A DNA stretch of 9,543 bases from a virus. Taxonomy: Duplodnaviria; Heunggongvirae; Uroviricota; Caudoviricetes. Location: the IMG/VR virus record IMGVR_UViG_2695420728_000007, positions 1-9,543 of that record; one strand, 5' to 3'. This document shows, in pieces, positions 5,475 to 6,517 of this stretch. Below the pieces are notes generated by a model that did not search any database, was not told where the DNA came from, and was given only the letters and a program-made list of their open reading frames with translations. Position 1 is the stretch's first letter. Each line of letters opens with the position of its first letter. The translations under genes and the position numbers were made by a program.

Positions 5475-5667
5475 GGTTCTTTCCACCATCTGAAAAATGA
5501 TTCTTTAAAATACCTGACATGTAATACAGAAAAAACACAAAACCATACCTTAATTAAAAACCTCATCATCAAGCAGATATGCATGGATAAACTACAAGAC
5601 GAGATATAAACCACCCTGCATTTAAATAAACAATAAACAACATCAGAAAAATAATTCTGCTCTATGG

Positions 5668-5694
5668 TTTACAATCAAAAATATCATTTATACT
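5668..5694 (+). promoter_or_regulatory. Candidate sigma70 promoter for the 111-aa ORF
   Basis: TTTACA (5668-5673), 15-nt spacer, TATACT (5689-5694), about 40 nt upstream of the ATG at 5735. The spacer is short, so this is weak. Confidence 0.25.
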
Positions 5695-5734
5695 TTTCAG
5701 AACATCACCAGCAAGGCATAAACAAGGAAACTAA

Positions 5735-6070
5735 ATGAAGTGGATTGTGATTGATACAGTTATCCAGCCATCATGCGGAATATCTTTTTCAGTCATATGG
5801 AGTAAAATAAAATTAATAATCTGGTATCAATCGGATGCTTTCTTACCTCCTGAAAGTATATTTACACTGACTCACACAGGCATCATGCTCAATAACAAAG
5901 TGCTGCCTGTAACCATTTACAACGTAGTACCATTCAATAAAACATTCTGGAATTTAATCAAAAACAGCCAGGAATGCCCTACAAATACAGATAACGTATT
6001 GAATGAATGCTTTAATAACCGTTGCACTCTGCAAATATGTCCTTATGGGCTAAAACAACAAAGTCCATAA
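5735..6070 (+). CDS. Hypothetical AT-rich orphan protein (111 aa), antisense to the late operon
   Basis: ATG at 5735 with AAGGAA 7-8 nt upstream. Low-GC composition unlike its neighbours. 6 of 13 Ile codons are AUA. Four Cys in the C-terminal third ([26 protein letters not shown]). No family recognised. Confidence 0.5.
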
Positions 6071-6084
6071 GGAGTTTACTCACA

Positions 6085-6125
6085 TCTGACAAAATCAATA
6101 TAAACAGCCCCTCCGGAGAGGGGCT
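6085..6125 (-). terminator. GC-rich hairpin with minus-strand U-tract (terminator-like)
   Basis: Perfect 8-bp stem AGCCCCTC / GAGGGGCT with loop CGGA at 6106-6125. On the minus strand it is followed by GTTTATATTGATTTTG; on the plus strand the downstream sequence is not T-rich. Confidence 0.45.
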
Positions 6126-6517
6126 GGAGAGTGGCGCTATGTGCCATTGCATGGTGCCGGGTGCCTCCCGGTGAATTCAGTACCAGCACCTGAATCCGCG
6201 ATTATCCCATATACCTACTCGCTGATTGCCCCTCCGCACAGGGGGATTCACCATGCCAGTTTCTTTTAACAAACTCCCCGCAAACCAGACAACAGTCAAC
6301 CGCCTGAATTGTGAAGTATTTAAAAATTTCTCCCGCTAACTGATACCCGGCTAACAGTCTGGCGTTTTCTTTTTCAGCAACGGGAAAGCAGCAACCACCA
6401 CACCCGCCACCAGCACACCGTCAGCCAGCACTGACATTATCCGGCTGCTGCAATGCCATTCACAAAAACAGTAAGCAATCACTTTTTACCGTAACCGGTG
6501 ATAATCCAGATATGTAT

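Follow-up and report, generated by a model that had tools for sequence, protein, structure and literature searches.

An AT-rich gene antisense to the late genes of a tailed phage is iraL, a prophage-borne RssB anti-adaptor of the IraM family

We analyzed a 9,543-nucleotide stretch of viral DNA, hereafter the window (IMG/VR record IMGVR_UViG_2695420728_000007, Caudoviricetes), in which an ATG opens a plus-strand ORF of 111 codons that faces the surrounding late genes (Table 1). Every sizeable neighbor is encoded on the minus strand, namely the Q antiterminator, an esterase, a P21-type holin, a DUF1327 protein, lysozyme and Rz. The GC content is 35.1% in the ORF, 29% in the region upstream of it and 32.7% across positions 5490-6070, as compared with 51.3% in the rest of the window. 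Its 13 Ile codons comprise six ATA, four ATC and three ATT. Among 2000 shuffles of the AT-rich island, only 5 yielded an ORF of 111 amino acids or more, and the ORF is therefore more than a product of chance. An initial annotation, made from the sequence alone, had described a 111-aa plus-strand ORF with its own Shine-Dalgarno sequence, a low-GC island from about 5490 to 6070, the use of AUA for about half of the Ile codons, an orientation opposite to the late genes, and a sole nearby terminator-like hairpin with its U-tract on the minus strand. This description proved correct in every particular.

Table 1. Positions of iraL, its regulatory elements and the neighboring late-region features in the window
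Feature	Position	Strand	Basis or remark
NanS-p-type sialate O-acetylesterase (DUF1737 + SASA + DUF6645)	3618..5474	-	Pfam; follows the cassette immediately in the late transcript
AT-rich cassette (ca. 33% GC)	5475..6095		Moron boundaries: esterase start codon to sRNA 3' end
Conserved upstream block	5623..5655	+	Hypothetical; PhoP-box-like repeat and second promoter-like site
Sigma-70 promoter P1	5668..5694	+	-35 TTTACA 5668-5673, 15-nt spacer, -10 TATACT 5689-5694
Transcription start site	A5702	+	Homology to 5' RACE in CFT073
Shine-Dalgarno AAGGAA	5724..5729	+	5 nt before ATG; read from the sequence
iraL CDS	5735..6070	+	111 aa plus stop; RssB anti-adaptor; ORF list, protein identity, NCBIfam, PDB
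STnc100/PasD-family prophage sRNA gene	6096..6285	-	Rfam RF02076; convergent with iraL
tRNA-Arg(UCU)	6982-7058	-	ARAGORN, Rfam, RefSeq homologs
CAT-anticodon tRNA	7163-7238	-	ARAGORN 'Met'; near-identical RefSeq genes are tRNA-Ile (AUA reader)
Late promoter region	7282..7376	-	pR'-like promoter and tR', directly downstream of Q
Q antiterminator	7382-8203	-	Pfam PF03589

The late region begins with a pR'-like promoter that we read by eye and that falls below the threshold of the promoter scan (TTGATT at 7376..7371, 16 nt, and TAAATT at 7354..7349 with a preceding TG, i.e. an extended -10), followed by tR', a strong minus-strand terminator at 7301..7282. Beyond tR' come the phage tRNA genes, DUF3927, the sRNA gene, the antisense iraL cassette, the esterase gene and the lysis genes. 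A sub-threshold Rfam match to 'Trp_leader' (27 bits, threshold 41) at 7275-7381 on the minus strand probably reflects a short leader-plus-terminator architecture. Between the two intact tRNA genes lies a degenerate tRNA-Arg; this middle member of the usual Ile-Arg-Arg trio is degenerate both in the window and in JJ1886. In the CAT-anticodon tRNA of the window, T replaces C at acceptor-stem position 3, which produces a U·G pair. This tRNA gene is located 1.1 kb from iraL, whose AUA usage is given above. A 117-aa minus-strand ORF at 6518-6871, between tRNA-Arg and DUF3927, matches phrog_2873 (unknown function) with 231 bits; it has no Pfam or NCBIfam match and is unannotated in RefSeq homologs, and it is probably a real phage gene that has escaped annotation. 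Inside it lies a terminator-like hairpin at 6682..6664 (minus strand). For the esterase, RefSeq and cross-phage homology place the start codon at 5474 (MAFKHYD, 617 aa) and not at the upstream ATG at 5489. The mechanically called ORF from 5489 has 623 aa, and its extra 5 codons (5472-5489) belong to the AT-rich cassette.

The initial annotation had regarded the plus-strand ORF as an orphan and had called for a homology search, and that search identified it as iraL, an already characterized prophage-borne gene whose product is an RssB anti-adaptor of the IraM family and a stabilizer of RpoS. The encoded protein is 100% identical to IraL of strain CFT073 (c1429, WP_000871291.1), and the coding sequences agree at 334 of 336 nucleotides, the two differences being synonymous. 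The IraL subtype has been defined by at least 95% identity to CFT073 iraL across the coding region without overlap with iraM matches (PMC4045071), and by its nucleotide and protein identity the window ORF belongs to this subtype. Identity to K-12 IraM is 62% at the protein level and 71% at the nucleotide level. The NCBIfam model for IraM (NF007393) scored 162 bits against a cut-off of 121 and covered residues 1-110 of 111. A phmmer search of the PDB aligned the protein to IraM (8twd_A, E = 9e-32) ungapped over residues 1-78, which in 8TWD form the IraM core, a PmrD-like beta-barrel; this is a match of sequence only. The identical protein carries the name 'anti-adapter protein IraM' in RefSeq, and megablast of positions 5490-6130 found matches in 1446 of 5426 complete E. 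coli genomes, with that same annotation under the match in all rows among the matches listed. Thus, the ORF is not an orphan. A Pfam scan of the ORF returned no family; the identification came from the NCBIfam and PDB searches. Pfam lacks a model for the family, and PHROGs, a phage-oriented resource, gives it (phrog_4407) as being of unknown function, so that annotation that is tool-free or phage-only will go on flagging iraL as an orphan. A fold check with a single-sequence AlphaFold2 model of IraL gave a mean pLDDT of 44, which is too poor to use.

We estimated dN/dS at ca. 0.17 for iraL both against iraM and against the variant of a Stx2a phage that is described below. Across 84 loci, a sample biased toward best hits, 11 alleles of the coding sequence specify one protein, all variation being synonymous. 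These patterns indicate that iraL is under strong purifying selection. The initial annotation had allowed that the ORF could be a remnant of a known IS or phage gene, which is ruled out by the intact frame and the signs of purifying selection.

The sRNA gene that converges with iraL was recognized by its match to RF02076 (132.4 bits, gathering score 47, E = 1e-29), which is full length and spans model positions 1-206; its 3' end lies 25 nt from the iraL stop codon. At this end the minus strand forms a 9-bp GC-rich stem (6126..6105) followed by TTTATATTGA, the only terminator-like site nearby. The hairpin is equally stable both ways, with a calculated -20.3 kcal/mol on the minus strand, where TTTATATTGATT follows, and -19.0 kcal/mol on the plus strand, where GAGAGTGGCGCT follows; the U-rich tail is found on the minus strand only. 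The hairpin at 6105-6126 is the 3' terminator of the STnc100-type sRNA gene and not a leftover. No plus-strand intrinsic terminator was found between 5400 and 7450. A search for base-pairing in trans between the sRNA and the 5' region of iraL gave nothing better than shuffled sequences.

The STnc100 element also occurs in two Stx2a phages (154 and 186 bits), and the same sRNA has been placed just downstream of stx2 in Stx2 phages (PMC12370729). STnc100 has recently been linked to PasD sRNAs, which are located between the Q and esterase genes (bioRxiv 10.64898/2026.05.13.724894). RefSeq genomes carry a spurious partial plus-strand 'hypothetical protein' across the sRNA gene (ca. 6141-6266 in the window). 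At seven loci (L007, L055, L066, L081, L087, L088 and L090, at ca. 3332-3526), a second STnc100-like copy with 73% identity lies about 275 bp beyond the first, so that some iraL loci contain tandem sRNA paralogs.

The limits of the AT-rich cassette became apparent from related phages. In the Stx2a phage PV11-77, which lacks an Ira gene, homology to the window ends at the esterase ATG and picks up again at the STnc100 terminator hairpin, the slot between them being filled by an unrelated ca. 220-240 bp. Many O157:H7 genomes likewise match the flanks only. Of 5426 complete E. coli genomes, 1429 contain a 921-bp block comprising the esterase start, iraL and the sRNA with coverage of at least 80%; these are essentially all the genomes having iraL. 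The order Q, tRNAs, DUF3927, sRNA, iraL (on the opposite strand), esterase and holin is common to CFT073, O104:H4 and JJ1886. A third Ira subtype occupies the slot in EH2246, a Stx2a-converting phage (LC567837.1; L004, 3954-4277, plus strand), where it encodes a protein of 107 aa (BCI50239.1). Because related Stx phages carry either unrelated DNA or this third variant in the slot, iraL behaves as a moron cassette. The marks by which morons are recognized can be read at the locus: presence in some and absence in others between adjacent genes of related phages (PV11-77 and O157:H7), a distinct composition (32.7% versus 51.3% GC) and a promoter of its own, assigned by homology to RACE data, albeit with no intrinsic terminator on its own strand. 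Thus, the moron reading put forward in the initial annotation is supported, and the alignments delimit iraL as what appears to be an exchangeable cassette, with bounds at about 5475 and 6095.

Several other members of the family were encountered. The EH2246 variant lies ca. 300 bp from stx2B, which links a gene for an RpoS stabilizer to the Shiga toxin genes of a converting phage. Escherichia albertii (L007) encodes an identical IraL. Citrobacter sp. ANG330 (L012) encodes a 109-aa homolog with 54% identity, which extends the family beyond the Escherichia, Shigella and Salmonella range stated in 2014, and E. coli ECGI0523 (L013) carries a frameshifted iraM-like pseudogene of 52 aa.

The 5' end of the CFT073 iraL mRNA has been mapped by RACE and starts ACATCACCAGCAAGGCATAAACAAGGAAACCA (PMC4045071). 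Positions 5702-5733 of the window match this end at 31 of 32 nucleotides. Because the P1 hexamers are correctly spaced from a start that matches the RACE-mapped end, the candidate promoter of the initial annotation is real by homology, and the start that it had predicted near 5700 agrees with A5702. P1 was missed by our consensus scan because of its 15-nt spacer, the range of the scan being 16-18 nt. In the window, both the -10 and the -35 of this iraL-specific promoter read as intact. Three substitutions separate the promoter region from that of CFT073. A5674 comes right after the -35, A5701 is the base at -1, and T5732 falls within the 5' UTR. At all three the window bases recur in the aligned JJ1886 copy (L006), and the upstream allele of the window is identical in O104:H4. 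Within the 84-locus sample, the exact 260-nt upstream allele was found at 17 loci and a one-base variant of it at 26. The promoter allele of the window is a common one. At other loci of this survey the -35 is altered by C5672T or by a 1-nt deletion.

We compared the region upstream of iraL with that of the EH2246 variant (iraX). The two are 56% identical overall, with conserved blocks within: the P1 spacer and -10 are 75-80% conserved, positions 5623-5657 are 80-85% conserved, and the AAGGAA Shine-Dalgarno sequence is kept. The block at 5623-5657 includes a direct repeat on the minus strand that resembles a PhoP box at 11 of 12 positions (TGTTTA-ttgtt-TATTTA, 5623-5639), and the 70%-identical variant has a matching repeat at the same position (CGTTTA-ttctt-TGTTTA). 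The repeat shares bases with the -35 of a further promoter-like site found by the consensus scan (TAAACA-17-AATAAT, 5627-5655). Since ca. 5% of shuffles of this AT-rich region attain the same score, we treat the repeat as a possible PhoP box. Two other candidate sites were rejected. A PhoP box at P1 was dismissed on our own reading of the sequence, in which GGTTTA at 5666-5671 has no second half-site. The higher IraL levels of a CFT073 fur mutant (PMC7157518) prompted a search for an upstream Fur box, of which the best match, 12 of 19, was like that of shuffles. Homology between the upstream regions of iraL and K-12 iraM was not significant, in that 237 of 500 shuffles reached the observed score, and blastn likewise found none. 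The iraL and iraX cassettes also share a 20-nt block, CATGTAATACAGAAAAAACA, at 5518-5537, with 90% conservation amid poorly conserved surroundings. It sits on the minus strand 44-63 nt upstream of the esterase start and may be a signal for esterase translation or processing.

The closest known counterpart of the window gene is that of uropathogenic CFT073, in which IraL was described as an IraM paralog encoded on the potB island (PMC4045071). We found this island to be a complete lambdoid prophage carrying iraL. The two copies specify the same protein and have the same prophage position and orientation, with the same promoter and 5' UTR save for the three substitutions, and their coding sequences differ at the two synonymous sites. 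The CFT073 prophage differs in that an IS200 follows Q and the esterase gene is truncated, whereas the window esterase is intact, with 617 aa.

K-12 IraM (YcgW) is a PhoP-dependent anti-adaptor induced by Mg2+ starvation. It has its family and its RssB target in common with IraL; the first 12 residues of the two proteins are identical, and both have the conserved C-terminal cysteines and CPYGLK. The iraM gene is likewise AT-rich and lies next to prophage e14. Unlike iraL, however, iraM has its own intrinsic terminator, and its upstream regulatory DNA is not homologous to that of iraL. IraL also has a 4-residue C-terminal extension relative to IraM, and IraM contacts both domains of RssB, whereas IraL reportedly interacts with the N-terminal domain only (PMC4045071). 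The gene of the EH2246 protein, which is 73% identical to IraL and 65% to IraM, has the slot and the orientation of iraL, being flanked by the STnc100 sRNA gene just after stx2B and by the esterase gene. RssC of Salmonella is a further member of the IraL/IraM/RssC family, with an rssC-iraL identity of 49% (PMC4045071). The IraM fold (beta-barrel, hairpin and helix) resembles only that of PmrD (4HN7) (PMC10844676). In our PDB search, no sequence match of IraL to PmrD was detected. PmrD is a PhoP-activated connector protein whose binding partner is the response regulator PmrA. Like the Ira proteins, it is small and binds a response-regulator receiver domain, but its target is PmrA and not RssB. 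Classical lambdoid morons include bor and lom of lambda and, between Q and the lysis cassette, the stx genes. With these iraL shares a foreign composition, its own promoter and insertion between genes that adjoin each other in related phages, and it would also resemble them in expression from the prophage and benefit to the host; it differs from them in opposing the late operon and in lacking a terminator on its own strand.

The identical protein, IraL, binds RssB and stabilizes RpoS during logarithmic growth (Hryckowian et al. 2014, mBio, PMC4045071). Deletion of iraL lowers sigma-S in log phase in both CFT073 and Shigella sonnei and shortens the sigma-S half-life from ca. 5 min to ca. 2.5 min, iraL under control of its native promoter increases sigma-S in K-12, and two-hybrid analysis showed interaction with the N-terminal receiver domain of RssB (PMC4045071). 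In the crystal structure of the IraM-RssB complex, the small beta-barrel of IraM wedges against RssB and occludes the sigma-S-binding face (PMC10844676). In later transcriptomic work, a temperature shift to 37 °C increased the abundance of CFT073 iraL mRNA by 1.6 log2-fold (PMC12890032).

We consider it highly probable (ca. 93%) that the gene in the window is a moron, the IraM-family anti-adaptor gene iraL, that is expressed in the lysogen and acts by blocking RssB and raising RpoS. The match of protein, promoter and mRNA 5' end to the characterized gene points to this reading, as do family membership, selection, cassette position and the pattern of presence and absence, all of which come from the present comparison of sequences; RssB binding, RpoS stabilization and log-phase expression are carried over from the literature on the identical protein and would apply here. 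According to this model, the sigma-70 promoter of iraL would drive transcription from A5702 while the lysogen is uninduced, exponential growth included. IraL would then bind the N-terminal receiver domain of RssB, leaving RssB unable to deliver sigma-S to ClpXP, and the half-life and level of RpoS would rise, so that the general stress response of the host would be pre-armed.

As to the opposing transcription, tR' and the sRNA terminator would shield iraL in the lysogen, where tR' together with two further minus-strand terminators would keep antisense transcripts off the gene; upon induction, Q-modified polymerase would read through these terminators and oppose iraL expression. The initial annotation had proposed a moron that is expressed in the lysogen and silenced on induction. 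The former part agrees with the iraL transcript and deletion phenotype seen with the resident prophage of uninduced, log-phase CFT073 (PMC4045071). Silencing by convergent Q-dependent transcription is plausible from the anatomy of the region, with pR' and tR' just downstream of Q. As for the roles suggested there, an exclusion or immunity factor is not what was found; iraL regulates the general stress response of the host and is at most a niche or fitness factor.

Other accounts of the locus differ in when, whether and for whom iraL would act. It could be a stress-induced gene of the IraM type, controlled by PhoP/PhoQ in response to low Mg2+ or acid through the upstream repeat and second promoter, with P1 providing basal transcription only. 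The near-complete PhoP-box-like repeat, its recurrence at the same position in a variant with an otherwise diverged upstream region, its overlap with the -35 of a promoter-like site, and the PhoP dependence of K-12 iraM (cited in PMC10844676) are all consistent with this scenario. We nevertheless regard it as unlikely, because ca. 5% of AT-rich shuffles reach the score, no homology to the K-12 iraM upstream region is detectable, and the published RACE found only the 5702-type start in work in which IraL acted without added stress (PMC4045071).

A quite different proposal is that iraL hitch-hikes with the prophage as a silent passenger, not meaningfully expressed owing to H-NS or to promoter polymorphisms. 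The DNA upstream of the gene is AT-rich in a way typical of H-NS targets, and silencing by H-NS could occur in some hosts; the promoter region also departs from that of CFT073 at three positions, and -35 lesions are found at other loci, copies of which the expression has been questioned (PMC4045071). Yet the window promoter reads as intact, the coding sequence bears the marks of strong purifying selection, and the CFT073 gene responds to temperature (PMC12890032) and to loss of fur (PMC7157518), all of which makes silence very improbable. Least credible is a function centered on the phage itself, whether as a superinfection-exclusion, immunity or anti-defense moron or as a convergent roadblock that restrains leaky lysis genes. 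The opposite-strand position of iraL between Q/pR' and the lysis genes and the lack of an assigned function for phrog_4407 are compatible with it, but models of known defense and exclusion proteins (PADLOC, E <= 0.01) gave no match to IraL, the identical protein has a demonstrated host target in RssB (PMC4045071), and late read-through in the lysogen would already be stopped by tR' and the two further terminators of the minus strand. We regard such a function as extremely improbable.

Beyond expression of iraL as an anti-adaptor moron, the locus invites a more speculative proposal, namely that iraL and the STnc100/PasD-type sRNA form a self-interfering convergent pair that couples RpoS stabilization, sRNA abundance and prophage induction, to which the PhoP-box-like repeat and second promoter might add control by Mg2+ or acid. 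We think it rather improbable that this is how the locus works. If it were true, transcription of iraL would continue antisense into the sRNA gene, the shared hairpin being a terminator for the sRNA strand only, Q-driven late transcripts would read antisense through iraL, and the sRNA, RpoS and induction would be joined in one switch. Neither a convergent-pair switch nor a PhoP input on iraL is described in the accessible literature.

The gene itself being known, the finding adds little beyond the correct annotation of iraL; the missing terminator and the convergence with an STnc100-family sRNA extend the known biology in a small but testable way. What gives the locus its wider interest is that a quarter of complete E. 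coli genomes contain this prophage cassette, which would raise RpoS in growing cells, and this bears on the stress tolerance and niche adaptation of pathogenic lineages.
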